A DNA stretch of 30,428 nucleotides from an uncultured Fibrobacterota bacterium (GCA_963831235.1 CAWHPS010000066.1:1-30428), one strand, 5' to 3'. Numbered from the stretch's first letter, positions 1,139 through 16,533 are shown. Notes: generated by a model from the sequence alone, not told the origin. Numbers and translations are program-made.

Positions 1139-1358
1139 GAAGAAAAAATAATACTTAATTAAATATTGGACAATTTCAATGTTTTTGTTGCGATGGTGCT
1201 GTCTTGTTTGAATAGCATTGTTAACACAAAATTATTTTAAAATAATAAGTAAATATGCTAATAAATTGATTTCAAATCAGTTGATGTTAACAAGCTGGTA
1301 ACACTTTGTTGAATTTTGCCTTGCTATTCTGGTAGGAATAGCTTAAATTTATGTGCAT

Positions 1359-2189
1359 ATGAAACCAATTTTTGAATATACTAATTACCGGGTCTTTCTA
1401 AAGGACTACTATGCCCACATGAAGGAGAGTACGCATTTTTTCTCCTTCCGTTTTTTTTCCAAACGGGCGGGCTTCAATTCCCCGCAAATCCTTAAGTATG
1501 TCATGGAGGGGGAACGTAACCTGGGCACTGAAAGTATCGAAAAATTCATTGTTGCCCTTACTCTCAAAAACCGAGAGGCGGATTATTTCCGGGCTCTGGT
1601 GAATTTCAACCAGGCTGGAACGGAAAAGGATAAGAGCATCCATTTCAAGGAACTCATCCGCGCCTCGGAAGGTGGGGATATCAAACAGTTGCATAAGAAT
1701 CAATATGAGGTTTTTAGCAATTGGTATTATGTCCCTATCCGGCAAATGGTCTCGCTTAATGGTTTCAAGGAGGATCCACAATGGATTGCCTCCAGTCTGA
1801 AGCCCGCCATCAAACCGGCCGAAGCCCAAAAAGCGCTTGATCGCCTCAAGGAACTGGGCATATTGCGGTACGATGGACAAGGCAAGTTGGTCCAATCGGA
1901 CGCCTTCATCAAAACCGAGGATGAAGTCCAATCCTTATGGCTCAGGAAGTTCCATAATCACATGATCCGGCTTGCCCAGGAATCCATTGAGCGGGTTCCA
2001 AAAGAGGAAAGGGAGATTAGCTCCGTTACGCTTAGTGTTCCAAAATCGGAAATTCAAAATATCAAAACCATGATTTCGGCCTTTGAAGACGAGATAATGG
2101 AAATGCTTGCAAAAAAGCCTGATGAGGCGGAAACCGTTTATCAACTTAATTTCCAGTTCTTCCCCCTAATGGAAAGGAAACCGGAATAA
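1359..2189 (+). CDS. TIGR02147 family protein (Fibrobacter succinogenes paralogous family; putative HTH regulator), copy 1
   Basis: ORF 1353..2189. The N-terminus reads MKPIFEYTNYRVFLKDYYAHMKE..FSFRFFSKRAGFNSPQILKYVMEGERNLGTESIEKF...ADYFRALVNFNQAGT. This matches the conserved N-terminal signature of TIGR02147 proteins as I recall it (YxDYRxFLKDYY ... FSYRxFAxKAG..SP..L..V..GKRNLT). It is paralogous to 10824..11642. The likely start is the ATG at 1359, since 1353 is a GTG. Confidence 0.8.
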   Translation: MKPIFEYTNYRVFLKDYYAHMKESTHFFSFRFFSKRAGFNSPQILKYVMEGERNLGTESIEKFIVALTLKNREADYFRALVNFNQAGTEKDKSIHFKELIRASEGGDIKQLHKNQYEVFSNWYYVPIRQMVSLNGFKEDPQWIASSLKPAIKPAEAQKALDRLKELGILRYDGQGKLVQSDAFIKTEDEVQSLWLRKFHNHMIRLAQESIERVPKEEREISSVTLSVPKSEIQNIKTMISAFEDEIMEMLAKKPDEAETVYQLNFQFFPLMERKPE

Positions 2190-3853
2190 TGCGACTACTT
2201 AAAACCTGTGTTGTACTCTCAATATTGTTATGGGGCTGCGGTTCCCAACCAGGGAATGTTGCGGGTAACAGTGGTACCAAGGCTGGAAACGCCATAGTGA
2301 CTGGGTTCATACGGGATCCGGGCGGTCGTATGGCTGCCGGAGTTGATGTCGTTTTGCGGGACAGGGATTTCCTCCCTGCAGGCACGCCCGGAACACCTGC
2401 GGGGTTTGGACATCAGTATTTCGCGAAAACAGATAGCAATGGCGGGTTCCATTTTTCAGATCTGGAAACCGGTCTTTATCTTTTAGAAGCCCGTAGCGGG
2501 GACACTCTCGGCACCGTGCGCGATTCCATTGACTGCAAAGGCAAATCCGGAACGGATATTAATATTGAAGATACCCTGAAGCCCGTTGGCGGAATGACGG
2601 GTATCCTGGAATTCCCGGATTCCATAGTTTATACGGCCATTACCATAGGCCTGCCGGGTTATTCCTTCCAAATAACCCCGGACTCCACGGGCTTCTTCCG
2701 ATTCGCTGGACTCTCTCCGGCAAGTTACCGGCTCCGTGTTTTCGTTCAAACGGATACGTTGGCAAGTTGGGATACGGTCCAAATCCAAATCACGGTGAAA
2801 ATCACAATTTCACTTGATACGATTTCGCTTATCAGCCATTGGCGGAGTACGAATACCTCTGGTTTCTCTCCGGCAAGCAACGGACGGATCTCCCTTACCG
2901 CATGGGATGCGTCGCCCTCGCTTGCCTACCAGCATTCCTCTCCTGATAATGGTATCAATGTCCTTGGGTTTCACCATGGAACCTGGAACAGTCTGGGTAA
3001 TTCAACCGTTTCCGGTAGCACTGCCGCGCATCCAATCTTGATACCATGGGGCCGGAATCTATTCATGTGCTATATCGACGGGGATAATGCAAACCGCCTT
3101 ACCGCCTTTATTTGGAATGGCGCCCAATGGCAACCCGCCGGTGTTCCAGGCTTCACGCCTCCGGGAATCGCCATATACGCTTTAACCGGTGATTCCTCCC
3201 AGGCGTGGGTTGGGTATGCGGACCCGGGACAGGGCGGTCGTATTACCGTGCAACGGTACTTTGGCGGGCAATGGCAGGTTCTGGGAAATCCTGGCTTCAG
3301 TTCCGGCGTTGCCAATGAAATAGCCATGGCTGTTCTGAACGGTGCGCCCATTCTTGCGTATACGGATGCCACACAGGGGAATCGAGTCACGGTGCTCCGC
3401 TTCTCCGGCGACGACTGGCAGCATCTTGGACCGGCCATTGTCTCCGATGGCCCTGTTGGTTCGCTTTGTCTGCGGGAATTCCATCAGGCGCCTGTGCTCG
3501 CCTATTGCGATTCTGCTCACGGCGCGGCGATTTCAGTCCGCTCCTGGTCGAACAACAGCTGGGCTTATCTTGATTCTCCGGGTTTCACCAATTCCCCCGC
3601 AGGCCTTGTCCGGTTGGCTGCGGATGAAGAGAAATTGGTATTAGCCTATCTGGACAATGATTTTATGAACCAAGCGCGGGTTTGTGAGTGGAATGGAAGG
3701 GAATGGAAAATGCTGAGCATCCGCAAACTACCTTATTTGCCGGCAAGGGAGTTGGATATCGCCCTGGTGAAGGGAACGCCGTGGCTCGCGGTTCTGGATA
3801 CGAAATTTACCAATAATGTTTCCGTGCTGCAATACATTAAAAGGCTTTTTTAA
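2189..3853 (+). CDS. lipoprotein with N-terminal carboxypeptidase-regulatory-like domain followed by tandem ~47-aa W/G-rich repeats (beta-propeller-like)
   Basis: Signal peptide plus Cys (MRLLKTCVVLSILLWGC). A CarbopepD_reg-like block follows (AIVTGFIRDPGGRMAAGVDVVL...TDSNGGFHFSDLETGLYLLEA). Then come at least 6 repeats of the pattern LAY.D...G.R.TV.R.....W..LG.PGF(S/T). The start ATG overlaps the upstream stop (TAATG). This gene is GC-rich relative to its neighbours. Confidence 0.85.
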   Translation: MRLLKTCVVLSILLWGCGSQPGNVAGNSGTKAGNAIVTGFIRDPGGRMAAGVDVVLRDRDFLPAGTPGTPAGFGHQYFAKTDSNGGFHFSDLETGLYLLEARSGDTLGTVRDSIDCKGKSGTDINIEDTLKPVGGMTGILEFPDSIVYTAITIGLPGYSFQITPDSTGFFRFAGLSPASYRLRVFVQTDTLASWDTVQIQITVKITISLDTISLISHWRSTNTSGFSPASNGRISLTAWDASPSLAYQHSSPDNGINVLGFHHGTWNSLGNSTVSGSTAAHPILIPWGRNLFMCYIDGDNANRLTAFIWNGAQWQPAGVPGFTPPGIAIYALTGDSSQAWVGYADPGQGGRITVQRYFGGQWQVLGNPGFSSGVANEIAMAVLNGAPILAYTDATQGNRVTVLRFSGDDWQHLGPAIVSDGPVGSLCLREFHQAPVLAYCDSAHGAAISVRSWSNNSWAYLDSPGFTNSPAGLVRLAADEEKLVLAYLDNDFMNQARVCEWNGREWKMLSIRKLPYLPARELDIALVKGTPWLAVLDTKFTNNVSVLQYIKRLF

Positions 3854-3874
3854 ACTTTCACAAAAGGAGTTCAC

Positions 3875-5365
3875 ATGTTCAACAAAATCCGTGTCATTCT
3901 CGGGAACCTCAGTGGTTTGGGATACTCGCCACTGGTGATGATCGCACTCTTCGTCCTCGTGGTGCGCACTTCAGGGGGGCTCACAGATTGGGTTTATGTC
4001 AAGTCCTTAAGCCAGCCGGGACCCAACCCTGGAATGTGCAATGTCAAAAACATCGCCATCAAAGGCGACTCGCTCTGGGCAAACACCTCCGGCGGTTTAA
4101 TGCTCTACCGCATATCCACCGGGGAAAAAAAGTTCTTCAAAAAGATCGTGGATGATAATGGCGGTGAACGCTTGACGCTGGACAGTAGTGGCGGTCTCTG
4201 GCTCATGCGCACCAACATGGGGAATGCGAGTGACTCATCGTATTACCTCAACTTGAAAACCGGTGCTTGGTCAACTTTATCAAAATTCAGTCAGAATATT
4301 ACTACGGACAAAGACGGATATGTCTGGATTCAAAAATCCGTGTGGCCGGACACGTTTGGAGGTTTGGAGCGTTTCGATGGAACGAGGTGGAAATCTTTTG
4401 ACAGACGCAATACGACTTTTCCTGCAGGTTGGAAGTCAACCAACCCGAATCCGTTTGTCGTTAATTCGATTTGTCCCTCACCCGACGGCAATCTCTGGGT
4501 TGGCTCGCAAACGCAGGGATTGTGGAAGTTTGATGGCGACTCCTTGGCTGTTGCCTTTACAACGGCAAACTACGGACTATTATCGGATGCTTATATCAGA
4601 AAAATTATCGTGGATAATGAAAGCAATATCTGGTTCACATGTGCGGAAGGTCTCATGTGTTATGATGGAATTCAAATGAAGGCTTTCCCTTTTGGGGCGG
4701 ATCTTCCCGGAAATAATCTTCTGTCCATACTATTCGGTCCCGGAAATAAAATATATGTGGGAAGCGCCACCTATGGAACCGTTTCCGGTGGTTTAGGGGA
4801 AGGCTTATCCGTTTATGATAAAAATACGAGGGGTTGGCAGAACCTGAATGCCCTAAACTCCGGATTGCCGGACAATTTCATCAACTGCCTGGCCAAGGAC
4901 AACGCAGGGCGGATCTGGATCGGCACAAAAAACGGCGGTTTGGTAAAGTTGGAGGGTGGTGTCTTTCAGACAATGTTCTTGCCCTCCATACCGAATTATA
5001 ATCTGGACGATTTTGTTTCTGACGGGCAGGGCGGCTTTTGGTTCAAGGGCCAGGGCTCTGCTCAGGGCTTAATTCATTGGGATGGTCGATCCGCATGGAC
5101 ACAGTCTTCTTCAATTATCTATCCATGGTCAATCGCAAAGGGGCCGGATAAACAACTTTGGGTTAGCGCCTATAAGCAGGGTATTACAAGTTTCGATGGA
5201 ATTTCAAAGTGGACCTCTTATGGGGAGTCCGACGGCTTGACCTGGAATACGGCGACACAGATTGCTGTTGACAAAAAAAAGGATTTGTCTGGACCAATTC
5301 GAAATATTGTGTGGGGGGCGGGACGCCCATACAAAATATGGGATTGGTTTTTTTTAACGGGGTAA
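3875..5365 (+). CDS. two-component regulator propeller (Reg_prop) repeat protein, N-terminal part (frame broken near 5273-5280)
   Basis: N-terminal signal/TM (LVMIALFVLVV). Multiple Reg_prop-like blades (DGNLWVGSQTQGLWKFDG; NESNIWFTCAEGLMCYDG; AGRIWIGTKNGGLVKLEGG). AAAGGAG RBS 6 nt upstream. The 3' end overlaps the next ORF in another frame. Confidence 0.8.
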   Translation: MFNKIRVILGNLSGLGYSPLVMIALFVLVVRTSGGLTDWVYVKSLSQPGPNPGMCNVKNIAIKGDSLWANTSGGLMLYRISTGEKKFFKKIVDDNGGERLTLDSSGGLWLMRTNMGNASDSSYYLNLKTGAWSTLSKFSQNITTDKDGYVWIQKSVWPDTFGGLERFDGTRWKSFDRRNTTFPAGWKSTNPNPFVVNSICPSPDGNLWVGSQTQGLWKFDGDSLAVAFTTANYGLLSDAYIRKIIVDNESNIWFTCAEGLMCYDGIQMKAFPFGADLPGNNLLSILFGPGNKIYVGSATYGTVSGGLGEGLSVYDKNTRGWQNLNALNSGLPDNFINCLAKDNAGRIWIGTKNGGLVKLEGGVFQTMFLPSIPNYNLDDFVSDGQGGFWFKGQGSAQGLIHWDGRSAWTQSSSIIYPWSIAKGPDKQLWVSAYKQGITSFDGISKWTSYGESDGLTWNTATQIAVDKKKDLSGPIRNIVWGAGRPYKIWDWFFLTG

Positions 5366-6195
5366 AGTGGCAGTGCTATGACACGACGAATTCGTCCCTC
5401 GTTAATAATGATTTCGTGGGGCCATGCCTTGACACAAATGGAAATGCATGGATAATATGTAAGAACGCAACCAAGAACTATTGCCTTGTCAGTTTTAACG
5501 GGACTCAATGGACAGACCCAGTAGATCTCGGGCCCATTCAAAACCCCACTTGCCTCACTGTGGATAATCAGAATAATATCTGGATCGGAACTTCTGGTTA
5601 TGGACTTTTGAAATTTACCGGAATTAGCAGCCCGCTCCAATATTTTTCCATGACCGGGACCCCGCTCCTTACAAATGATATCGCGGCATTAACAGTAGAC
5701 GGTTCTGGCAAGATTTGGTGCGGGGTGACGGATATATCCCTTAACGGCAAAGGGGGTGGGATCGCCGAATATTCAGAGGGCAACTGGACTTATTATACCA
5801 AAGACAATTCAGGATTGCCCGCCAACCAAATCGGCCAAATTTGGGCCGGCGACTCCGGGCGGATTTGGGTACTGAGCGGCGACGGGTTCTGCTCTTTCCG
5901 AGAGGAGGCTATCACAGGGTCCGAACATGCATCCCCCGCAACGCATCCGGCTTTTAATCTTGAACTGAATCCTAATCCATTCAATCCGTCTACAGTCATT
6001 TCCGTAACGGGAGCGGACCGTCCTATTGACATATCGATATTCGGTTTGGACGGCAGGAAAATCTACCATTATCCGAATCTGGCGCCGGAGGTTGAGCTGA
6101 CTTGGAACGCCCGAGGGTTCGCCTCTGGGGTTTATATTGTCAAAGCCACAGCCGGAAACCGCGTCTGCTTAAAAAAGATTTTACTTCAAAAATAG
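5311..6195 (+). CDS. Reg_prop repeat protein C-terminal part with T9SS (Por) C-terminal sorting domain; probably the continuation of 3875..5365
   Basis: More blades (NNIWIGTSGYGLLKFTG; GKIWCGVTD; GRIWVLSGDGFCSF). A C-terminal T9SS tail follows (NPNPFNPSTVISV...IFGLDGRKIYH...ASGVYIVKATAGNRVCLKKILLQK). This frame is open from 5272, and the listed start is a GTG. Confidence 0.75.
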   Translation: MGGGTPIQNMGLVFFNGVKWQCYDTTNSSLVNNDFVGPCLDTNGNAWIICKNATKNYCLVSFNGTQWTDPVDLGPIQNPTCLTVDNQNNIWIGTSGYGLLKFTGISSPLQYFSMTGTPLLTNDIAALTVDGSGKIWCGVTDISLNGKGGGIAEYSEGNWTYYTKDNSGLPANQIGQIWAGDSGRIWVLSGDGFCSFREEAITGSEHASPATHPAFNLELNPNPFNPSTVISVTGADRPIDISIFGLDGRKIYHYPNLAPEVELTWNARGFASGVYIVKATAGNRVCLKKILLQK

Positions 6196-6222
6196 GCTTA
6201 CGGGAAACCTAAAGGAGGGCAC

Positions 6223-7887
6223 ATGAAACTTACCTTAAAAGTCCTTTGCTTCGCGGCAATCATTGTGTTGAGCATGAGCGCTTATATCTCTGCCGCGGAT
6301 GTCGATTCCATCAGTTTTGATACTACTGTTATAGGAATGATGCCCATCGCAACTACCGTGGACATCTATCTCAACAAATACATTGCCGGAATAAGCATGA
6401 AAGTAATAGATGGATTTCTCATCACAGCATTGGAAGTTGTAAAATATGACGCTTTCGGTAATCTGGCATGGCGATACAAACGTGATTATCCGGACACTTT
6501 GGGAGACATACATCAGGCCGTAAACCCGGTAAAGGTTTTGTCGGATCCGAAGGGCAATCTCTATTTAGTTGGATATTATGCATACTGGACAGACACCTGG
6601 TCTGACACAACGGGTGTGAACCAGAACTGGCTTTACCTGCTAAAAATCGACTTATCCGGGAACTTGAGTTGGGAACGTCTCTGGCGCAAGAACGACAGTA
6701 GCTCCGTAATACCAGCGGATGCCGCTCTTGATGGGGCAAACAACCTTATTATTGGAATTAACTCCGATAATGGTATTGACGGAAATGCCGCACACTTCTC
6801 CGCGCTTATAAAATACAGCTCCAGCGGTCAGTTTCTCTGGTCCAGTTTCTATGATTTTGCGGCCACAAATAATCTGAGTTACTATTTCAACGGAATTCGG
6901 AAAGTTATTGTTCGAAACAACACCATCGGCGTTGGCGGGGATTATACCAAGTCGAGTCATTGGCTTGCCAGGGTTTCACTGGATTCGGGGCATGTCATTT
7001 GGAACAGTCAACAGACGGCAGGCGGAAGCGGCACTTTTATAGACATGGCAATGGGTCCGCAACGCGAGTTTGTCAGTCTTTCCAGAAGCGACCTGGGATT
7101 GGGGATAATGGAAAGATACGATTCCAGTGGAACGCTAAGCTGGCAAAATAATGATGACAGCACGCTCTATTTCACAACTTGCGTTGATTTTAAGGGAAAT
7201 TCCTGGGTGGCTGGAACCAAAGGCGGTAAAGCCATAGTGTCAGTCTGCAAATATAGCCCGAATGGTACAAAGCTCGCCGAAGCGAATGAACCTTTATTGC
7301 GCAATACGACTAGCTCCATTATCAAATGCGATGATTTTGGCCATGGGGTTCTTTTAAGTGAAAGCGCCAATTCTGACACTCTTTTCATTTGTTGTTACGA
7401 TACAGCGCTTAATAAAATCGTGACCTTTGCCAAACGTGTTGAAGGAGGCGTCAACGACGCACAGATTTACATCCAGGCCTTCGATAAGTTGTTGAAAAAC
7501 GGCCGGACAAAGGCAGAAACGCCTACCCGGGTTATTGTGATTGCCCAGAACTCCGTATTGGCCTCTTTTGTACAATACACTTTGCCGGACAACATTGCGA
7601 TAGACAAGAATACGTTATCTAATGCAATGAATTTGGAGCTTATGTGTGAACCCAACCCGTTCAATCCGATGGCCGTAATATCCTTCGATCTCCCGCATGC
7701 GTCTCCCGTGACGCTCAAACTCCTCCGCGTGGATGGCCAGGTCATCCGAACCCTGGTGAGAGGCATATACGCCGCAGGCCGGTACCGATTTTCTCTCAAC
7801 GGCACAGGTCTTGCCAGCGGAACCTATTTTTGCCGTATGCAGGCGGGAACACATTCATTGAGCAAGGCAATCCTATTGCAAAAATAA
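6223..7887 (+). CDS. secreted repeat protein with T9SS C-terminal sorting domain
   Basis: Signal peptide (MKLTLKVLCFAAIIVLSMSAYISA|AD). C-terminal tail CEPNPFNPMAVISFDL...LLRVDGQVIRTL...ASGTYFCRMQAGTHSLSKAILLQK. AAGGAGG RBS upstream. Confidence 0.85.
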   Translation: MKLTLKVLCFAAIIVLSMSAYISAADVDSISFDTTVIGMMPIATTVDIYLNKYIAGISMKVIDGFLITALEVVKYDAFGNLAWRYKRDYPDTLGDIHQAVNPVKVLSDPKGNLYLVGYYAYWTDTWSDTTGVNQNWLYLLKIDLSGNLSWERLWRKNDSSSVIPADAALDGANNLIIGINSDNGIDGNAAHFSALIKYSSSGQFLWSSFYDFAATNNLSYYFNGIRKVIVRNNTIGVGGDYTKSSHWLARVSLDSGHVIWNSQQTAGGSGTFIDMAMGPQREFVSLSRSDLGLGIMERYDSSGTLSWQNNDDSTLYFTTCVDFKGNSWVAGTKGGKAIVSVCKYSPNGTKLAEANEPLLRNTTSSIIKCDDFGHGVLLSESANSDTLFICCYDTALNKIVTFAKRVEGGVNDAQIYIQAFDKLLKNGRTKAETPTRVIVIAQNSVLASFVQYTLPDNIAIDKNTLSNAMNLELMCEPNPFNPMAVISFDLPHASPVTLKLLRVDGQVIRTLVRGIYAAGRYRFSLNGTGLASGTYFCRMQAGTHSLSKAILLQK

Positions 7888-8807: not shown

Positions 8808-9752
8808 TCATCCGGCAATCCGTCTGTTCTCAGAATTTAAAACCTTCCATGAACTCCCATCCTGCATGTACACTCCCATCCCCCATGTTCCGGCCCAAAC
8901 ATGGCCCAAATCATCCGTCCTTAAGACAACAACAGGCTTTCCAACAGCAGCAATTTGTTCCCAACATCTTCCATTAAAATAATCCAGACCACCATCCCAT
9001 GAGCCTACATATCGTAAAGTACTGTCACAAAGGATTGCACGTATATAATTACCTGAAATCCCCGTGCCTCGATGCACACGTAACGTGTCAGTATTCAATA
9101 TTCCGCATAATCCGCTGCGTGCTGTTCCAATCCATAACCGATTACTTTTATCTGTTTCCGCAAGGGTAACTTCATTGTCTGGTAACCCTGAATGATTACC
9201 AATGCAGACACTTGAATTTCCATTCCATTGCGTGATGCCGCTGTACCTGGAGCAGAAAAGTATCTCTTCATTCTGTCTGAAACATATATCCCACACATTG
9301 TTCCCACAAAGCCCTGACGAGGTGTCCATGTGAAGAAAACCATTGTCCTTGAAACACCACGCGCCATCACGGGCAGTGCCTATCCAAAAAGCCCCTTTGT
9401 TCTCTTTTAGCGTCAATATGTATTCTCCCCTGAAAATATTGCCAACCTTGCCCCACCTGTTGCCGTTGACTTGATAAAGCCCGTCTCCATAAGTCCCGAC
9501 CCATGATAGTCTGTCTTTTTGCAGAATAATTTGACGTATAAGGTCTGTTTTAATCGGCGTATTTTTCGTATTGTAAATCACCCAAACCGGATTGGAACTG
9601 CAGGTTAAAATTAAGGTGGGAATAAACAGAAATAATATTTTGTGTAATTGCAATCTTTTCAAATGCGTACACCACCAATCTGGGTTGTAGATGTCATATG
9701 CTTCTCCTTTAGCCGTGATAAAGAAAGAAAACATACGGATAGAATTTTCCAA
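8808..9752 (-). CDS. two-component regulator propeller (Reg_prop) repeat lipoprotein
   Basis: Six blades of the type D..G.LWIGT..GL (RLSWVGTYGDGLYQVNG; GAFWIGTARDGAWCF; NRLWIGTARSGLCGI; GHVWAGTWGMGVYMQDG). Lipoprotein-like signal ILFLFIPTLILTC. The true start may be the internal TTG at 9653, giving MQLHKILFLF... Confidence 0.8.
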   Translation of the reverse strand: MENSIRMFSFFITAKGEAYDIYNPDWWCTHLKRLQLHKILFLFIPTLILTCSSNPVWVIYNTKNTPIKTDLIRQIILQKDRLSWVGTYGDGLYQVNGNRWGKVGNIFRGEYILTLKENKGAFWIGTARDGAWCFKDNGFLHMDTSSGLCGNNVWDICFRQNEEILFCSRYSGITQWNGNSSVCIGNHSGLPDNEVTLAETDKSNRLWIGTARSGLCGILNTDTLRVHRGTGISGNYIRAILCDSTLRYVGSWDGGLDYFNGRCWEQIAAVGKPVVVLRTDDLGHVWAGTWGMGVYMQDGSSWKVLNSENRRIAG

Positions 9753-9792
9753 AGATAACCAGTTTGGGCAGAGGAATCCCTGAACTTATCCT

Positions 9793-10095
9793 TCAGGCAT
9801 GGGCGAGACTGCGGTTCCGTTTTATAGGTTCAAGGGATAACCGATATCCAATAGCACGGCTGGCTTTGAGGTAGGTCATTATATTACAATTCTCGCCTTT
9901 CTCAAGCCTGGAATATTGTTGCTGGGTTAGGTGTGCTTTCTTTGCAACGTCTGTTTGAGTTTCCCCTCTTTTCTCACGCTCTTCATTCAGCCGGTATGCC
10001 AGTTCAAGAAGTTCCTTTTCTTCTTCATGGTATTCTTTGAATTTGGGGTATTTAAGCTGTTCTTTCAGGTACTTATCAAATGATGTCATGGTCAA
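9793..10095 (-). CDS. higA: XRE-family HTH DNA-binding protein; HigA-like antitoxin
   Basis: The HTH segment TQTDVAKKAHLTQQQYSRLEKGE is typical of Cro/C1 (XRE) proteins. Its start overlaps the 3' end of the upstream toxin gene by 20 bp. Confidence 0.8.
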   Translation of the reverse strand: MTMTSFDKYLKEQLKYPKFKEYHEEEKELLELAYRLNEEREKRGETQTDVAKKAHLTQQQYSRLEKGENCNIMTYLKASRAIGYRLSLEPIKRNRSLAHA

Positions 10096-10489
10096 GCCTC
10101 CTTATCGTATTTACATTGTAGTGCTTGAGGAAATCATTTCTGTATTCCTTTGCGCGAACAATCTCTTTCTTTGGAACCTTGTCTGTTGTTTTCACAAAAT
10201 CATGCGTCAGAATAATGTAGTCCCGATAACAGAAAAAATAGAGAATTCGAGTCTGCTCACCGGATAGCTTCATTCTCAGTTCATGGATACCATCTTCAAG
10301 AATGTCTGCGAATGGACGATGCAGGCTGATTCCATGTTCCTTGAGCAACCCTATCCACGATACTGCTTTGGCACGCTCCCGTATATCCAAAGAATCGAGA
10401 AATTTGCGAATAGGACATTCTCCTTCCTCTGATTTGTAAAAATGCACCTTCCATTGTCGTTCCACTTGATAAATATACACCTTATTCAA
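10076..10489 (-). CDS. higB: type II toxin, RelE/ParE superfamily, phage Gp49-like (HigB-like)
   Basis: 137 aa. ...CPIRKFLDSLD..RAKAVSWIGLLKEHGISLHRPFADILEDGIHELRMKLSGEQTRILYFFCYRDYIILTHDFVKTTDKVPKKEIVRAKEYRNDF matches the Gp49-like (DUF891) toxin family. Toxin-first order with overlap onto an XRE antitoxin. Confidence 0.8.
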   Translation of the reverse strand: MNKVYIYQVERQWKVHFYKSEEGECPIRKFLDSLDIRERAKAVSWIGLLKEHGISLHRPFADILEDGIHELRMKLSGEQTRILYFFCYRDYIILTHDFVKTTDKVPKKEIVRAKEYRNDFLKHYNVNTIRRLDHDII

Positions 10490-10823
10490 CGTAAACGCAA
10501 ATTATTGTTTAATTGATATTGAAAATGATAACCTTTCCCGCTATGAAACCAATCATGCTGAACTCCTCAAACATTTCTCAGGTCTACTCCACCTAAAAGA
10601 TACCGGTTGAGGATAAAATAATCCATCAAAGATTAATTCACTCATTTTGTCCTGGATTCTTTTGGCTCATTTTTGAATACAATCTGGAAAAAAAGTTGTG
10701 TCGTAATTGCAGTTTGTCTTGTTTACATTTTAGAACGATTTTTTTTAATAATAGCTAATTAAACTTGTTTTATTACCTTATATTCTTTATTTTTTGTTCA
10801 CATTTATCAAGGAGTTTATTGTT

Positions 10824-11642
10824 ATGGATACACTTTATGAGTATTCAGATTATCGAAAATACATCAAAGACTACTATGAAAATAATAAAGCACGAACCCC
10901 GAATTTTTCTTTCCGTTATCTTTCTATGAAGGCTGGCATCAATTCAGCCTCCTTCTTCAAGTCCATCATGGATGGAACACGAAACTTGACAAAAAATACT
11001 ATCCTCAAAACCTGTCTTGCTCTCAAACTTGCCGACAAAGAAGCTGAATATTTTGAGAATCTGGTGTTTTTTAATCAGGCGAAAAGTATAGCAGATAAAA
11101 ATGTTTATTTTGACAGACTCGTTGGATTTCAGAAACTGAAGAACCTTAAACTTGTTAAAGAAGAAGAATATGATTTTTACGCCGAATGGTATCATTGTAT
11201 TATCAGGGAATTGGCAGTCAACTTGGATTTTAAGGACAATTTTGCTTTGCTTGCCAGTAAGATATTGCCTACCATAACAGCCAAACAGGCTGAAAAATCA
11301 GTGAGCCTTCTACTGAAGCTTGGTTTCTTAAAAAAAGAAAACAACCGATACGTACAAAGAGATCCTGTTATTTCATCTGGGAATTCAATTAAATCTCATC
11401 AGATTACCCAGTTTCAGATAAAGATGTTGCAGCGTGCAATGGAAGCCTATGACCGCAGTCAAACCGATGAGCGAATGATGTCCTCTACCACATTCAATAT
11501 ATCAAAGGAGTCCTTTGAATACTTCAAGAAGAAAATCCGTGAAATTCGATCACATCTGCTGGAAATCGCACGCACAGACGACAAATCAGACAGAATATAT
11601 CAAATGAACATTAACCTTTTCCCTGTTTCCAAAACTAATTAA
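10824..11642 (+). CDS. TIGR02147 family protein (putative HTH regulator), copy 2
   Basis: ORF 10794..11642. MDTLYEYSDYRKYIKDYYENNKARTPNFSFRYLSMKAGINSASFFKSIMDGTRNLTKNTILK...AEYFENLVFFNQAKS is the same signature as copy 1. AAGGAG RBS 9 nt upstream of the ATG at 10824. AT-rich codon usage, unlike copy 1. Confidence 0.8.
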   Translation: MDTLYEYSDYRKYIKDYYENNKARTPNFSFRYLSMKAGINSASFFKSIMDGTRNLTKNTILKTCLALKLADKEAEYFENLVFFNQAKSIADKNVYFDRLVGFQKLKNLKLVKEEEYDFYAEWYHCIIRELAVNLDFKDNFALLASKILPTITAKQAEKSVSLLLKLGFLKKENNRYVQRDPVISSGNSIKSHQITQFQIKMLQRAMEAYDRSQTDERMMSSTTFNISKESFEYFKKKIREIRSHLLEIARTDDKSDRIYQMNINLFPVSKTN

Positions 11643-11652
11643 GGAGGCTGTC

Positions 11653-13155
11653 ATGACAAGGCTATTCACGGCAATCACTCTCTTTGCTGCTCTGCTATTT
11701 CTGAATCAGTGTAACAAGAACACGCCCATTATGGCAGGTGGAGGATCGGATACTGAGAATGCGTTTGTGCAGGGTTACCTATATGATGACATCGGAAAGG
11801 TGGCTGCCAATGCCGGTGTTGTGCTGTATGCAAAACAATATAATCCCGTTGGTAATTTCCTTGATACCATTGCTGTCACGACTACGGATTCTAACGGGTT
11901 TTACAGCATTAAAAATGTGACTGCCGACGAAACCTATTTACTAAAGGGCAGCGACACTCAAAAAGAAAAGATGTATTTCGATACCCATGTCGCTCAGGCG
12001 GGATATTACCACGACACTTTGCGGATTCCGGACACTTGCATTTTTAATGACGTCCCCGATCGTGATTCTGTATATCTGTATTTCCCACGTCAGGATATAA
12101 GGTTGCCTCTGGATTCTCAGACGATAGTTTATATCAGCAATCTGCCGAAAAGAACTTATATTTTTATAGACAGAATTCCCAACGAAAGTCTTCCTGCTTT
12201 CACCGCAATCTGCAATCGGAGCTTGCTCGAGGATCTGGTTATCCTGTTAATTTATAAGATTCGTGGATCCCTTTATGCCCCTTTCAGCTTTCAGGAGGAC
12301 GCTCGCAAGGCAGGGTACGAATATGTTACATGGTTTCCGCGCAGTCCGGATACCAGCGAAATCAAATGTATGGCCATAGATGAGTACAACCAACGGATAT
12401 TGATCTGCTATCGAAACAACATTAAAGCTTTTTCCAAGACCGGTGAATTGTTGGGAGTAGTTATTTCGGATAGTAATATTAATTCATTGACTCTGACGGA
12501 TAGAAGTACGATATTCGCAAGTTGCAACCAAACATTTCCAGTGTCCATCATCAGGAAATATACGAACGGTGTATTGTCAATGCAGATATCGAATTATGGA
12601 GATAGCGTTTCGCCCCTGCCTTGGGGACATGCTGCAACAGATAAAAACGGCAATATTTATGTTATGCCCCATACTTTTTTTAATGGTGAAAGACCATTCA
12701 TACAGAAGTTTGATCCTTCAGGCAAGCCTATTGCACGATGGGACGATACAAATGCTGTACATTTTGAAAATACGAATTATTTGGACGGCTTGAATATAGG
12801 GTATCAGTTGGATGTGGATAAAGTCCGAGGCATTGTTTACATGCTTAATCCCGGAAATTCCAGAATACTACGTTTCGATACAGCAGGGAGTTATCTTGGC
12901 GACATAACAGGTTTGCCTTATTGTTCTTTCAACGTCATGCGGTTGGCTCCTAATGGCAATATTTATGTGGCGACCTATACTCAAATAACGGCTTGGTCTC
13001 CCGACGGACGCCTGTTGATTTCCCTGCCAAGCCACTTTTTTGGTCCCGGTGATATGTGTATCAGCAGTGAAGGGGTGATTTACTTGGTCAATGGTGTTGG
13101 AAACTGGATAGATATCTATTATCCGGAAAGTTTACATTACGTACTGCCTAAATAG
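11653..13155 (+). CDS. lipoprotein with carboxypeptidase-regulatory-like N-domain and NHL/SMP-30-like beta-propeller repeats
   Basis: Signal plus Cys (MTRLFTAITLFAALLFLNQC). CarbopepD_reg-like block (AFVQGYLYDDIGKVAANAGVVLYAK...TDSNGFYSIKNV). NHL-like blades (NGNIYVMPH; RGIVYMLNPGNSRILRFD; NGNIYVATY; EGVIYLVNG). GGAGG RBS 6 nt before the ATG. Confidence 0.85.
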   Translation: MTRLFTAITLFAALLFLNQCNKNTPIMAGGGSDTENAFVQGYLYDDIGKVAANAGVVLYAKQYNPVGNFLDTIAVTTTDSNGFYSIKNVTADETYLLKGSDTQKEKMYFDTHVAQAGYYHDTLRIPDTCIFNDVPDRDSVYLYFPRQDIRLPLDSQTIVYISNLPKRTYIFIDRIPNESLPAFTAICNRSLLEDLVILLIYKIRGSLYAPFSFQEDARKAGYEYVTWFPRSPDTSEIKCMAIDEYNQRILICYRNNIKAFSKTGELLGVVISDSNINSLTLTDRSTIFASCNQTFPVSIIRKYTNGVLSMQISNYGDSVSPLPWGHAATDKNGNIYVMPHTFFNGERPFIQKFDPSGKPIARWDDTNAVHFENTNYLDGLNIGYQLDVDKVRGIVYMLNPGNSRILRFDTAGSYLGDITGLPYCSFNVMRLAPNGNIYVATYTQITAWSPDGRLLISLPSHFFGPGDMCISSEGVIYLVNGVGNWIDIYYPESLHYVLPK

Positions 13156-13195: not shown

Positions 13196-13624
13196 ATGCT
13201 TTTCTTCCATTCAAAAAGAAATGGTCATCCTGTAAACATATATTTATCTGTTTTTATTACCCTATTGGGATTCTTGATTCAGAATTGCAAAATAGGTCCC
13301 GTGATTCCGGAGACCGTGAGCGGGTGCAATGTGACCATCACTATGAATAAATCCATTTATGGAGCAGATTCTGTTTCTCAATCAATACAGGCAATATTTA
13401 CCAATGTTGGAAGTACTTATATTGAAAACAATAAATGTCACATCCGCGTGGACGGTTTGGACATGGTGCGCATCCATGCTGATGAGAACACTGCCACTTT
13501 TAATATTGCTTCAGACCGGTTGGCGATCTTACCTGATTCGCTTTATGTATTTGTAGCTGCACTTGATAATGGATTGACTGTCGAAACATCCACGGATTCT
13601 CTTAGAACACTTAGATTTATTTAA
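13196..13624 (+). CDS. small hypothetical lipoprotein
   Basis: 142 aa. Signal LSVFITLLGFLIQNC. AAAGGA 7 nt upstream. No recognisable family. Confidence 0.55.
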   Translation: MLFFHSKRNGHPVNIYLSVFITLLGFLIQNCKIGPVIPETVSGCNVTITMNKSIYGADSVSQSIQAIFTNVGSTYIENNKCHIRVDGLDMVRIHADENTATFNIASDRLAILPDSLYVFVAALDNGLTVETSTDSLRTLRFI

Positions 13625-15684: not shown

Positions 15685-16533
15685 ATGCATTATTATATTC
15701 TGCTCAGCTTTTGTTTTTTCCTGATATTCTCCGTTCCATGCAATGCCCTTAAAGCCGAGTGTGATAAATTTGCGCCATCGGACAGCATTGTAATGGACTA
15801 CTTCTTCAATGATGAAATAACACGTCACAAGGCCTATTATAAAGACGGAGAGATAAATGTTCTATTAGGTTATAAAAAAGCCAAACAGATATGGTTTAGA
15901 AAATTCTACAGCTCAAGTGTTGCAGACAGCATTGTTTATTACGACGATGTTGGAAACATTGACTTCAAGGTAAGGTACAATTACACTCCCAAGCGAAAAA
16001 TTCTTATGGGCAGACAGTTCAATACCCAGGAAGATGTCAGATCAAGGTTCATAGGAAACCCTGATGATGTGGCTGTCAAGACCGTTGAGTTATACAAATA
16101 TGGGGCCAAAAGCATGGAACTGGTTTTTAACAACGACAACATGAGCCATCTTATTGTTTATGATTACAAAGGTCCGCATAAATTCACAAAGAAAGAAACC
16201 GTTGACTCAATACTTCGCTATACTTATATGCCGAGCCTTGATGAAGACCTGACAGGCCGTCCACCATCTGAAATATCTTCATTTATCAAGTCCAGCCGGG
16301 AAATGCGCGATATTGTTTCAAAATGCATGTCGCGCTATCGAGATGCAAGCGGAACAATATTCGTTGAATTTTCCATTAAACGCGATGGAACAGTGCCGGA
16401 TGCCTTAATCCTGAAAAGTACCGTATCATGCAAGAATATCGGCATCGAGCTTATGAATGTAATAAAAAACATTACCTTTCCGAGTAACAGCAAATATGGC
16501 ACAGCCACGGTCATGTACCCGTTTCAGTTTTAA
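15685..16533 (+). CDS. secreted protein with TonB-C-terminal-like domain
   Basis: Signal peptide MHYYILLSFCFFLIFSVPCNA. The C-terminal ~80 aa (TIFVEFSIKRDGTVPDALILKSTVSCKNIGIELMNVIKNITFPSN...ATVMYPFQF) resembles the TonB_C fold signature. No Pro-rich spacer, so this is not a canonical TonB. Confidence 0.5.
   Translation: MHYYILLSFCFFLIFSVPCNALKAECDKFAPSDSIVMDYFFNDEITRHKAYYKDGEINVLLGYKKAKQIWFRKFYSSSVADSIVYYDDVGNIDFKVRYNYTPKRKILMGRQFNTQEDVRSRFIGNPDDVAVKTVELYKYGAKSMELVFNNDNMSHLIVYDYKGPHKFTKKETVDSILRYTYMPSLDEDLTGRPPSEISSFIKSSREMRDIVSKCMSRYRDASGTIFVEFSIKRDGTVPDALILKSTVSCKNIGIELMNVIKNITFPSNSKYGTATVMYPFQF

Follow-up and report, generated by a model that had tools for sequence, protein, structure and literature searches.

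A probable two-gene module of TIGR02147-family regulators and tagged envelope lipoproteins in Fibrobacterota, Bdellovibrionota and Myxococcota

TIGR02147/DUF4423 is a large protein family (16,399 clusters at 50% identity with E <= 1e-10) without a characterised member. The window analysed here, a 30,428-nt stretch of DNA from an uncultured Fibrobacterota bacterium, contains two genes of this family, each closely followed by a gene for a predicted lipoprotein. What links a putative cytoplasmic regulator to an exported protein, and is the arrangement peculiar to this locus or a property of the family? We favour, at a probability of around 0.6, a two-gene module in which a DNA-binding regulator is encoded together with a dedicated, tagged envelope lipoprotein.

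Two cassettes and their neighbours

The genes and protein features of the two cassettes are as follows.

1359..2189, + strand: TIGR02147/DUF4423 regulator, copy 1 (276 aa; alternative GTG start at 1353)
2189..3853, + strand: partner lipoprotein 1 (554 aa; start overlaps the regulator 1 stop by one base, TAATG)
2237..2239, + strand: lipobox Cys17 codon of partner 1 (L-W-G-C), predicted lipidation site, in a column invariant in alignment A2 (74 partners)
2273..2293, + strand: tag motif GTKAGNA, residues 29-35 of partner 1, fitting G-[TSI]-x-[TVIAS]-[GDE]-N-[PGA]
3875..6195, + strand: Reg_prop repeat protein with T9SS C-terminal sorting domain (two ORFs, 3875..5365 and 5311..6195)
6223..7887, + strand: secreted protein, encoded last in the putative operon, whose probable T9SS C-terminal domain is sub-threshold
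10824..11642, + strand: TIGR02147/DUF4423 regulator, copy 2 (272 aa; AAGGAG ribosome-binding site 8 nt upstream)
11653..13155, + strand: partner lipoprotein 2 (500 aa; starts 10 nt past the regulator 2 stop; AGGAGG ribosome-binding site)
11710..11712, + strand: atypical lipobox of partner 2, L-N-Q-C, Cys20
11743..11763, + strand: tag GSDTENA, residues 31-37 of partner 2 (motif match)

Both regulators belong to TIGR02147, as the initial annotation had proposed. The profile covers each protein at full length, with 280.6 bits for regulator 1 (profile positions 1-271 of 272) and 270.7 bits for regulator 2 (positions 3-271) against a cutoff of 50, and Pfam DUF4423 (PF14394) gives 154.9 and 119 bits, respectively (gathering score 30). 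The two proteins are 33% identical to one another and fit the uniform family length of ~280 aa. Their C-terminal tails follow the pattern [VI][YVC]QxN[FIL]Q[FL]FP, taken from regulator alignment A1, which is matched exactly by regulator 1 (VYQLNFQFFP) and with one deviation by regulator 2 (IYQMNINLFP). The QLNFQFF stretch of the tail has some likeness to sliding-clamp-binding motifs, but the invariant Q, N, Q, F and P are unlike that motif and the comparison was dropped.

Where a winged HTH had been suspected, the predicted structural model of the regulator consists of an Xre-type HTH, a winged helix and a helical hairpin, and supports the regulator reading. In this model the first domain has the five-helix fold, with recognition helix, of Xre/cI-type proteins. 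The Pfam families HTH_3, HTH_31 and HTH_19 find no match in the regulators at E <= 0.01, the HigA HTH is matched only marginally at profile level (E 0.056), and a Foldseek comparison of the model with the PDB returned no full-length analogue and nothing at E <= 0.001. The regulator has no membrane segment, nor does it match any TPR family in Pfam.

In cassette 1 the TAA stop of the regulator gene lies at 2187-2189 and base 2189 is common to the ATG of the next ORF, so that the TAATG overlap noted earlier can be read directly in the sequence; the database call for regulator 1 begins at the alternative GTG (1353). Partner 1 has a signal peptide, MRLLKTCVVLSILLWG-C17, with a positively charged n-region, a hydrophobic h-region and a canonical lipobox, from which we infer lipidation of the cysteine. 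Asn34 of its tag falls in a column at least 90% conserved among the 74 partners. CarboxypepD_reg (PF13620) matches residues 37-126 (42.7 bits, above the gathering score of 32.3), and residues 217-554 comprise seven gap-free 48-aa repeats; from these repeats, and from these only, a beta-propeller seems plausible. As a homolog search with partner 1 returned no match, its structure could be predicted from the single sequence only, giving an unusable model (pLDDT 38). PDB sequence searches with both partners gave no useful match.

The same two-gene architecture recurs 9.5 kb downstream with the spacing and coordinates originally described. Partner 2 has Gln at position -1 of its lipobox, and Gln or His at this position recurs in relatives. 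Its match to CarboxypepD_reg (19.8 bits, E 1e-3) is under the gathering score of 32.3 and an NHL-like match is marginal (E 1.3e-3). Since the partners of regulator 2 orthologs have PF13620 matches, distant homology to this domain is likely. The two partners had been said to share only an N-terminal carboxypeptidase-regulatory-like domain: BLASTP does align them over residues 2-65 only (E 2e-5), but the domain itself is sub-threshold in partner 2. In ortholog L086 the partner keeps the tag (GGGSDTENG) and has a different C-terminal domain, an FGE-sulfatase.

Two further genes follow cassette 1, at intergenic gaps of 21 and 27 nt. The first is split by a frame change at an A8 run (5273..5280), and addition of one A yields an uninterrupted 773-aa ORF. 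It carries Reg_prop matches of 69.7 and 28.1 bits, and its C-terminal ORF (5311..6195), alone or fused, scores 28.5-28.7 bits with the Por_Secre_tail model TIGR04183 (cutoff 23) and 26.6 bits with PF18962, just below the cutoff of 27. With the repaired 773-aa protein the score of the PorZ model (NF052228) rises to 77.5 bits, far below the equivalog cutoff of 260, and the likeness is limited to the Reg_prop repeats and the tail, short of membership. In the second gene (6223..7887) TIGR04183 and PF18962 reach 18.6 and 20.1 bits at the extreme C-terminus, against cutoffs of 23 and 27, and the protein ends in ILLQK, like that of the preceding gene. Of the two T9SS-tailed cargo proteins in the initial annotation, one tail thus passes TIGR04183 in a gene that is frameshifted, whilst the other is sub-threshold.

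T9SS-tailed genes follow the pair in the window and in loci L081, L082 and L085, and this downstream cargo is specific to the window's sub-clade. A family-wide association with T9SS cargo did not emerge, Por_Secre_tail being present in only 7 of 91 following genes; these genes are heterogeneous, and the notion of a universal third gene was rejected. No conserved transporter or protease adjoining the pair was found among them. The neighbours of the cassettes in the window are ordinary chromosomal genes, and neither Rfam nor tRNA scans gave a match in the window. A genuine HigBA-like pair lies between the cassettes (9793..10489).

Gene coupling and a short tag across the family

The survey of the pairing covered 82 TIGR02147 loci of Fibrobacterota, Bdellovibrionota and Myxococcota, 80 of them being those closest to regulator 1 among at least 569 matches, with genes and signal peptides called by simple custom scripts. 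The next gene lies no more than 20 nt from the regulator in 74 of the 82 loci, with a 4-nt ATGA overlap in 48 and a 1-nt overlap in seven, and even at an identity of only 27% a member retains the 1-nt overlap, together with a degenerate tag. What had been seen in one window as a conserved regulator with variable lipoproteins is thus a family-wide rule in three phyla.

Such regular pairing argues against incidental adjacency of the two genes, and a mobile, toxin–antitoxin or defence module is likewise scarcely credible. The regulator HTH is indeed like those of HigA antitoxins and restriction–modification controller proteins, and the cassettes flank a HigBA-like pair. However, PADLOC models found no match in any of the four module proteins (E <= 0.01), the partner, exported as a lipoprotein and equipped with domains of binding type, is not a toxin, and the surrounding genes are ordinary chromosomal ones.

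Judging by their alignment, what the partners have in common is the lipobox cysteine and a short tag, not CarboxypepD_reg. The cysteine is invariant in 74 of 74 aligned partners, and 0-17 residues later comes G-[TSI]-x-[TVIA]-G-N-[PGA], with the Asn at least 90% conserved. The strict motif is present in 59 of the 74 (~72 by eye, variants included) compared with 4 of 1863 other ORFs of the loci. All four of these extra matches adjoin a regulator gene: one is a true partner missed by ORF choice, two belong to divergently transcribed genes and the last is a further copy upstream. Within the window, the N-terminal motif is found in the two partners only.

CarboxypepD_reg, the candidate shared element in the initial annotation, occurs in only 25 of the 74 partners. 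Their Pfam content is diverse and includes CBM_4_9, Laminin_G_3, LRR and repeat domains, and sequence comparison suggests that the mature domains are mostly non-homologous. The possibility that the tag caps, at its N-terminus, a beta-sandwich common to the partners was rejected, hhalign giving less than 1% probability for most subfamily pairs over the 160 residues past the tag. Two comparisons are exceptional, that of the short Fibrobacterota partners, with GTDVGNP as tag, and the CarboxypepD_reg partners (99.5%) and that of two groups of Myxococcota partners (81%). A DNA or RNA element was also rejected: synonymous codons vary freely and all are used, indicating that the tag is conserved as protein.

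As regulator and tag occur one-to-one, the tagged lipoprotein may be regarded as the regulator's dedicated envelope partner. Another view, which we consider somewhat unlikely, takes the regulator for a simple repressor or activator of local action and the lipoprotein for ordinary cargo. The tag would then be recognised by envelope machinery as a signal for sorting, tethering or processing (e.g. surface export, avoidance of Lol or release from the anchor), without feedback to the regulator, and coupling would ensure co-expression only. Lipoprotein sorting signals, such as those for Lol avoidance and for export in Bacteroidota, do reside in the N-terminal tether, the region of the tag, and unrelated mature domains are what a portable sorting tag would be expected to carry. 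Against this, a general sorting signal should also be found on lipoproteins without a dedicated regulator, whereas the extra motif matches all adjoin TIGR02147 genes (the DNA covered being 841 kb of locus flanks and not whole genomes) and the window has none beyond the two partners. We think that the tagged lipoprotein acts in sensing, feedback or processing and is not a mere passenger.

A candidate operator upstream of the regulators

A palindrome, YGTATTC-N4/5-GAATACR or subfamily variants of it, is found ~60-240 nt upstream of regulator genes. Allowing one mismatch at most, GTATTC-N4/5-GAATAC has 52 matches in the 841 kb compared with 3.3 +/- 2.1 in shuffles; 28 of the 52 lie 60-240 nt upstream of a regulator start, and the other 24 are mostly intergenic, upstream of neighbouring lipoprotein genes. 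In generalised form the palindrome occurs upstream in 31 of 88 loci (~1.4 expected), or in 31-45 of the 88 only with 0-1 mismatch, and among the 88 scanned many Fibrobacterota loci with CarboxypepD_reg partners have none. The subfamily-specific half-sites track a recognition-helix residue, a covariation confounded by phylogeny.

The corresponding sites in the window, none with an assigned strand, are these.

1219..1226: distal palindromic box TGTTAACA, ~141 nt before ATG 1359
1285..1303: candidate operator of regulator 1, TGTTAAC-AAGCT-GGTAACA, an inverted repeat ~74 nt before the ATG
1325..1344: GCTATTC-N6-GAATAGC, a perfect inverted repeat (7 bp) of uncertain role, 15 nt before the ATG
10720..10739: upstream footprint of regulator 2, TGTTTACATTTTAGAACGAT, with one canonical half-site (TGTTTAC)
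10795..10802: proximal half-site-like box TGTTCACA, ~29 nt before ATG 10824

Apart from one inner mismatch, the repeat at 1285..1303 conforms to the family architecture GTnnnC-N5-GnnnAC. Upstream of ortholog L083 (73% identical) stands a perfect CGTTAAC-GGACT-GTTAACA at -82, and upstream of ortholog L081 (60% identical) TGTTAACA at -75; both orthologs also have a GTTAAC box at the distance (-150) that matches the distal box of cassette 1, the latter being one of only two copies of its sequence in the 30-kb window (0.42 expected). The repeat at 1325..1344 resembles the consensus (GTATTC..GAATAC) but is not conserved in L081 or L083 and was left uncertain as an operator; it also appears as a weak hairpin in a terminator scan. 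Upstream of cassette 2 there is no clean palindrome but one good half-site and a footprint common to L086 (73% identical), in which TGTTTACATTTTAGAACGAT aligns with TGTTCACAAAATAGAACGAT at a similar distance. The perfect version, CGTTTAC-AATC-GTAAACA, is seen at -97 in the relative L088, and TGTTCAC, the same box as TGTTCACA, lies ~25 nt before the start codon in L086. Promoter- and terminator-like sites are not enriched.

With an Xre-HTH and winged-helix model on the one hand and a conserved upstream palindrome on the other, the regulator reading gains support, and the position of the sites suggests that the regulator may bind the palindrome and regulate its own expression. Fold and operator evidence of this kind needs no partner input, a point in favour of the lipoprotein as ordinary cargo.

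The proposed module and known systems

Under the preferred reading of a regulator with a dedicated tagged partner, each cassette would be a single copy of a conserved module of two genes. Gene 1 would encode a cytoplasmic DNA-binding regulator, probably a dimer, with an N-terminal Xre-type HTH, a central winged helix, the helical hairpin and the VYQLNFQFFP tail. It would bind a 16-17-bp palindrome, YGTnnnC-N4/5-GnnnACR, ~60-240 nt upstream of its own start codon, and through it control its own operon; in cassette 1 the operator would be the repeat at 1285..1303, with a second box at 1219..1226. Gene 2, translationally coupled through the overlapping or abutting stop and start, would yield a Sec/SPII-exported lipoprotein in which the invariant Cys and the tag G-[TS]-x-[TV]-G-N-[PGA] precede a freely exchangeable extracytoplasmic domain (CarboxypepD_reg plus the 48-aa repeats in copy 1, CarboxypepD_reg-like plus NHL-like in copy 2). 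The putative operon of cassette 1 would run on into the two T9SS-type secreted proteins (1359..7887). A functional link between regulator and tag is what we infer from their co-occurrence; as the regulator is cytoplasmic and the lipoprotein exported, the two have no common compartment once export has taken place and a direct link would lack an obvious mechanism.

One such mechanism, distinctly improbable to our minds, is trans-envelope signalling, in which an external ligand is bound by the variable domain and the regulator is informed by the tag region, or by a lipopeptide released from it, possibly after cleavage at Asn-Pro or Asn-Gly, by a logic like that of RRNPP or membrane-sequestered repressors. 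It would fit the one-to-one co-occurrence, the differences at variable tag positions between paralogs of one genome, partner domains that are typical ligand binders, the Xre-type HTH (as in RRNPP regulators) and the invariant Asn with Pro, Gly or Ala after it; self-cleavage of Asn-Pro bonds is known from the NPTH motif of FlhB/YscU. On the other hand, neither a TPR nor any other recognisable peptide-binding domain is present in the regulator, no conserved transporter or protease adjoins the pair, and the tag, being past the Cys, remains on the mature exported protein.

A bolder proposal, rather doubtful at present, is that these pairs are a new type of trans-envelope sensor in which the exchangeable domain detects a ligand and the tag is the point of processing or hand-over to the cytoplasmic regulator, for example by Asn-dependent cleavage or recognition by a conserved envelope factor. 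If so, such sensors, with at least 16,000 protein clusters, would be spread widely through Fibrobacterota, Bdellovibrionota and Myxococcota, each paralog with its own operator would be an insulated circuit for surface or secreted proteins, and in Fibrobacter such circuits could be the missing regulation of the glycan-degrading apparatus.

That the system was undescribed, as first supposed, agrees with the searchable literature, in which we found TIGR02147 nowhere, DUF4423 only as a table entry for Bd3700 (PMC12546842), and no description of an obligate lipoprotein partner, of its tag or of a palindromic upstream site. The pairing of regulator and tagged lipoprotein with an upstream palindrome in three phyla therefore appears to be undescribed. 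The family gains three testable properties: a DNA-binding fold with a predicted palindromic operator whose half-sites differ between subfamilies, an obligate and translationally coupled lipoprotein partner, and a new short N-terminal tag marking partners in three phyla whatever their mature domain. The tag may reveal an undescribed step of lipoprotein sorting or processing. Bd3700, the Bdellovibrio member, is up-regulated during growth inside prey (PMC12546842), and Bdellovibrio is genetically tractable. According to the genome paper of F. succinogenes (PMC3079729), the transcriptional control of its cellulases is unresolved and the genes in question have few recognisable regulators close by. 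In TIGR02147 loci the regulators adjoin genes for binding-domain lipoproteins, glycoside hydrolases and T9SS cargo, and multi-copy local regulators beside such genes offer an entry point to this question.

Amongst known systems, the nearest is TIGR02147 (NCBIfam 'Fsuc_second')/DUF4423 itself, of which both window regulators are full-length members and which has a name but consists of uncharacterised paralogs. Xre-type autoregulators encoded by a gene that overlaps their target gene are familiar as controller C proteins such as C.AhdI and as HigA antitoxins. TIGR02147 proteins, however, are about three times larger, with a winged helix, helical hairpin and conserved tail in addition, have no match to Pfam HTH_3 or in PADLOC, and are paired with an exported lipoprotein where C proteins and HigA control an endonuclease or toxin.

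The RRNPP regulators PrgX, PlcR and Rgg sense peptides from exported precursors, including lipoprotein signal peptides, and the likeness lies in an Xre-type HTH regulator encoded beside an exported protein with a conserved short N-terminal peptide. TIGR02147 proteins fall outside this group: they have a winged helix and helical hairpin in place of a TPR sensor domain, the tag of the partner lies past the lipobox Cys, outside the signal peptide, neither an Opp-type importer nor an Eep-type protease is found near the pair, and the hosts are diderm.

In the polysaccharide utilisation loci of Bacteroidota, SusR, hybrid two-component or ECF/anti-sigma regulators accompany SusD-like lipoproteins. 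TIGR02147 loci differ in having no SusC/SusD, sigma-70/anti-sigma domains or histidine kinase, and their regulator has no membrane segment. The likeness, a functional analogy only, is that of one dedicated regulator per locus with a carbohydrate-binding-type lipoprotein and secreted enzymes or T9SS cargo, in many paralogous copies per genome.

The two cassettes and their surroundings

The contig, whose closest relatives bear source names that indicate Fibrobacterota, carries two copies of a module in which a TIGR02147/DUF4423 gene (the regulator) is followed by a lipoprotein gene (its partner):

1359..2189, +, regulator 1 (the database call starts at GTG 1353)
2189..3853, +, partner 1
10824..11642, +, regulator 2
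11653..13155, partner 2

Both regulators match NCBIfam TIGR02147 end to end (280.6 bits for regulator 1 and 270.7 bits for regulator 2, cutoff 50) as well as Pfam DUF4423, and they are 33% identical to each other. In cassette 1, base 2189 is both the last base of the regulator stop codon (TAA, 2187-2189) and the A of the partner 1 ATG (TAATG), a 1-nt overlap, and in cassette 2 the partner begins 10 nt past the regulator stop with an AGGAGG site ahead. In partner 1 we recognise a signal peptide and the lipobox LWGC, together with a CarboxypepD_reg match of 42.7 bits (above the threshold of 32.3); the corresponding match in partner 2 is sub-threshold at 19.8 bits, and alignment of the two partners is confined to residues 2-65. 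Since the ORFs and TAATG, the TIGR02147 scores, the partner features and the partner spacing all check out, the overlapping pair described in the initial annotation, and its recurrence as cassette 2, are confirmed. Residues 217-554 of partner 1 (nt 2837..3850) form seven gap-free 48-aa repeats (W-x-x-L-G-x-x-G-F-S ... P-x-L-A-Y-x-D ... V) with no Pfam or PDB sequence match; these may fold as a 7-bladed propeller and belong to a repeat family so far undescribed.

Two T9SS cargo genes had also been placed after cassette 1, and one of these stands in modified form: ORFs 3875..5365 and 5311..6195 (both +) are a single gene with a frame shift in an A8 run (5273..5280). Inserting a single A restores one open frame of 773 aa that combines Reg_prop repeats with a T9SS sorting domain passing TIGR04183. 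The repaired protein falls far under the PorZ cutoff. The frame change might reflect an error in the assembly, mark a pseudogene or belong to a phase-variable tract. The second cargo, 6223..7887, did not hold up to the same degree, its C-terminal T9SS domain being correctly positioned and sub-threshold. The genes after partner 1 are set off by gaps of 21 and 27 nt, and we saw no convincing terminator within 1359..7887; the genes may be co-transcribed. T9SS-tailed genes follow the pair in its nearest relatives too (loci L081, L082 and L085), make up 7/91 of following genes across the family and are absent from cassette 2.

Between the cassettes lies a HigBA-type pair (9793..10489, −) whose genes overlap by 20 nt:

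9793..10095, −, HTH_3 antitoxin
10076..10489, −, Gp49/HigB-like toxin (PF05973, 69.7 bits)

Further along, 15685..16533 (+) encodes an AgmX/PglI-type (TonB_C-like) C-terminal domain (NF033768, 42.2 bits, cutoff 40), of a type typical of Myxococcota gliding-motility proteins.

Regulator–partner pairing and a shared tag

A TIGR02147 scan of one genome per species returned at least 569 loci, of which we analysed the best 80, those most similar to regulator 1, calling gene starts and lipoprotein signals with our own heuristics. These 80 derive from Fibrobacterota (including Chitinispirillaceae and Chitinivibrionales), Bdellovibrionota and Myxococcota, several genomes supplying two or three loci apiece. 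With the two window cassettes included, a same-strand next gene starts no more than 20 nt from the regulator stop at 74/82 loci, and the proposed coupling of a conserved regulator to variable lipoproteins is thus borne out in three phyla. Among the tightly spaced pairs, a 4-nt ATGA overlap occurs in 48 and the 1-nt overlap of cassette 1 in 7; a divergent partner directly upstream of the regulator accounts for two exceptions. Even at 27% identity to regulator 1, one TIGR02147 member still overlaps a lipoprotein gene by 1 nt. The family amounts to 16,399 clusters at E <= 1e-10, and the TIGRFAMs description reportedly gives F. succinogenes about two dozen paralogues. The L082 contig holds two modules (3475..4302, −; 9001..9846, +), between which lie transposases (IS110 and ISL3) and a PIN toxin-antitoxin pair, with a rhamnogalacturonan-lyase-like gene after one module and T9SS-tailed genes after the other.

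In an alignment of the 74 partners, only the initiator Met and one Cys are invariant; the latter is taken as the lipobox Cys, and hence the probable lipidation site, because a positively charged n-region and a hydrophobic stretch precede it. An Asn column reaches at least 90% conservation, and anchoring on it uncovered a tag, G-[TSI]-x-[TVIA]-G-N-[PGA], 0-17 residues past the Cys (GTETGNP, GTDTGNP, GIEIGNP and GSQAGNG are examples). Partner 1 has GTKAGNA (residues 29-35) and partner 2 GSDTENA (residues 31-37). The strict pattern is found in 59/74 partners, with a variant visible by eye in all but about two. The tag is exclusive to this setting: among other ORFs in the same 841 kb (at least 100 aa, first 70 residues searched) it occurs in 4/1863, all four adjoining a TIGR02147 gene. 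Synonymous codon use is free at every tag position, and conservation therefore acts at the peptide level. A peptide conserved so close to the lipobox could serve envelope sorting or processing alone, without feeding back to the regulator; this is the main rival of the reading favoured below, and given the tag's restriction to TIGR02147 neighbourhoods in the loci sampled we consider it rather unlikely.

Beyond the tag the partners diverge, the profile-profile probability over the next 160 residues being <1% for most pairs of subfamilies.

Pfam domains among the 74 partners
CarboxypepD_reg: 25/74
DUF2341: 11/74
Laminin_G_3: 10/74
CBM_4_9: 8/74
LRR families: 4/74
Serpin: 2/74

Many small partners have no Pfam match and no NCBIfam model covers the partners. 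The initial annotation took CarboxypepD_reg as the shared partner element; because partners are mostly unrelated past the tag, that domain proves lineage-specific, and the general signature is lipobox plus tag. Mature domains are exchanged even between close orthologues: the partner of L086, whose regulator is 73% identical to regulator 2, keeps the tag (GGGSDTENG) and has an FGE-sulfatase domain where partner 2 has an NHL-like region. We disfavour the idea that modules with such partners are toxin-antitoxin, defence or mobile elements.

Two other window ORFs have lipobox-like sequences and lack the tag. One, of 142 aa (13196..13624, +; IQNC), lies 40 nt past partner 2 on the same strand and has no family match; the other (8808..9752, −; LTC) encodes a Reg_prop repeat protein, its repeat type related to that of the cassette 1 T9SS cargo.

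Candidate operators

Modelled with AlphaFold2 from 39 sequences, the regulator reaches a mean pLDDT of 84.6, rising to 95-97 in the N-terminal 80 residues, and a Foldseek search with this model against solved structures gave no full-length analogue. The regulator sequence contains no signal peptide or hydrophobic segment. That the pair forms a trans-envelope sensor, a more novel reading, is improbable in our view; we can offer no verified route for a signal from a lipoprotein to a cytoplasmic protein.

Counting k-mers over 220 nt upstream of regulator genes yielded GAATAC and GTATTC, which combine into a candidate operator, the palindrome YGTATTC-N4/5-GAATACR. When up to one mismatch is allowed, the 841 kb of loci contain 52 copies, where shuffles that preserve composition give 3.3 +/- 2.1; 28/52 copies, from all three phyla, lie 60-240 nt upstream of a regulator start codon. 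Most of the remaining 24 are intergenic and near the module, often directly past the partner stop and ~130 nt upstream of another lipoprotein gene, which suggests small local regulons. In Polyangia loci L035, L053, L057, L060, L077 (~7616..7647) and L040 (7125), a second perfect GTATTC-N4-GAATAC directly past the partner stop precedes, by ~73-131 nt, a conserved gene for a lipoprotein (MKYLPW...GCS) without the tag, suggesting that there the regulon exceeds the two-gene module.

A generalised form, GTnnnC-N4/5-GnnnAC with complementary inner bases, is perfect upstream at 31/88 loci (~1.4 expected), its inner triplet differing by subfamily (ATT, ATA, ATC, ACA, TTA, TAA). In the predicted recognition helix, the residue following a conserved 'LK' co-varies with this triplet:

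Leu: ATT or ATA
Phe: ACA or TTA
Tyr: TAA

Within one clade, L031 (LKLV) has GTATAC and L041 (LKFV) GTTTAC. The covariation is suggestive, though confounded by phylogeny.

Candidate sites in the window are as follows:

1219..1226, second box of cassette 1, TGTTAACA
1285..1303, candidate operator of regulator 1, TGTTAAC-AAGCT-GGTAACA
1325..1344, perfect 7-bp inverted repeat, GCTATTC-N6-GAATAGC, 15 nt ahead of the regulator 1 ATG
10720..10739, cassette 2 upstream stretch, TGTTTACATTTTAGAACGAT
10795..10802, cassette 2 proximal box, TGTTCACA

Only two copies of TGTTAACA occur in the window, both in cassette 1 (0.42 expected), and orthologues of regulator 1 carry these boxes equally far from the regulator start: L083 (73% identical) has CGTTAAC-GGACT-GTTAACA at -82 and GTTAAC at -150, and L081 (60% identical) has TGTTAACA at -75 and -150. 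The more distant L082, L084 and L085 have GTACAC-N5-GTGTAC. The repeat at 1325..1344, absent from orthologues of cassette 1, resembles the family GTATTC..GAATAC, unlike the clade's own GTTAAC boxes, and might be a paralogous regulator's site or a 5' UTR hairpin. The cassette 2 upstream region has no clean palindrome; its two sites align with their equivalents in L086, and the relative L088 has a perfect CGTTTAC-AATC-GTAAACA.

A proposed autoregulatory module and its nearest known systems

We favour, at a probability of roughly 60%, a reading in which each TIGR02147 protein binds DNA to autoregulate its own operon and is obligately co-expressed with a tagged lipoprotein whose extracytoplasmic domain is exchangeable. 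The regulator fold, the coupling, the exclusivity of the tag and the palindrome enrichment come straight from computation; DNA binding, lipidation, co-transcription and a link of any kind between regulator and tag are inferred. TIGR02147 was not found in the searchable literature, where DUF4423 appears in a single paper, as a table entry for Bd3700, a protein up-regulated in growing Bdellovibrio (PMC12546842). The F. succinogenes genome paper left cellulase regulation unresolved and found recognisable regulators scarce (PMC3079729).

The window regulators belong to TIGR02147/DUF4423, itself only a label. Membership tests for two better-known classes failed: Xre-type controller proteins, which are closest in working in that they control themselves through a palindrome and their genes overlap the target gene, and the local regulators of Bacteroidota polysaccharide utilisation loci, which resemble the module in genomic logic. 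What is new here by comparison is a local HTH regulator whose obligate partner, tag and candidate operator are all undescribed.
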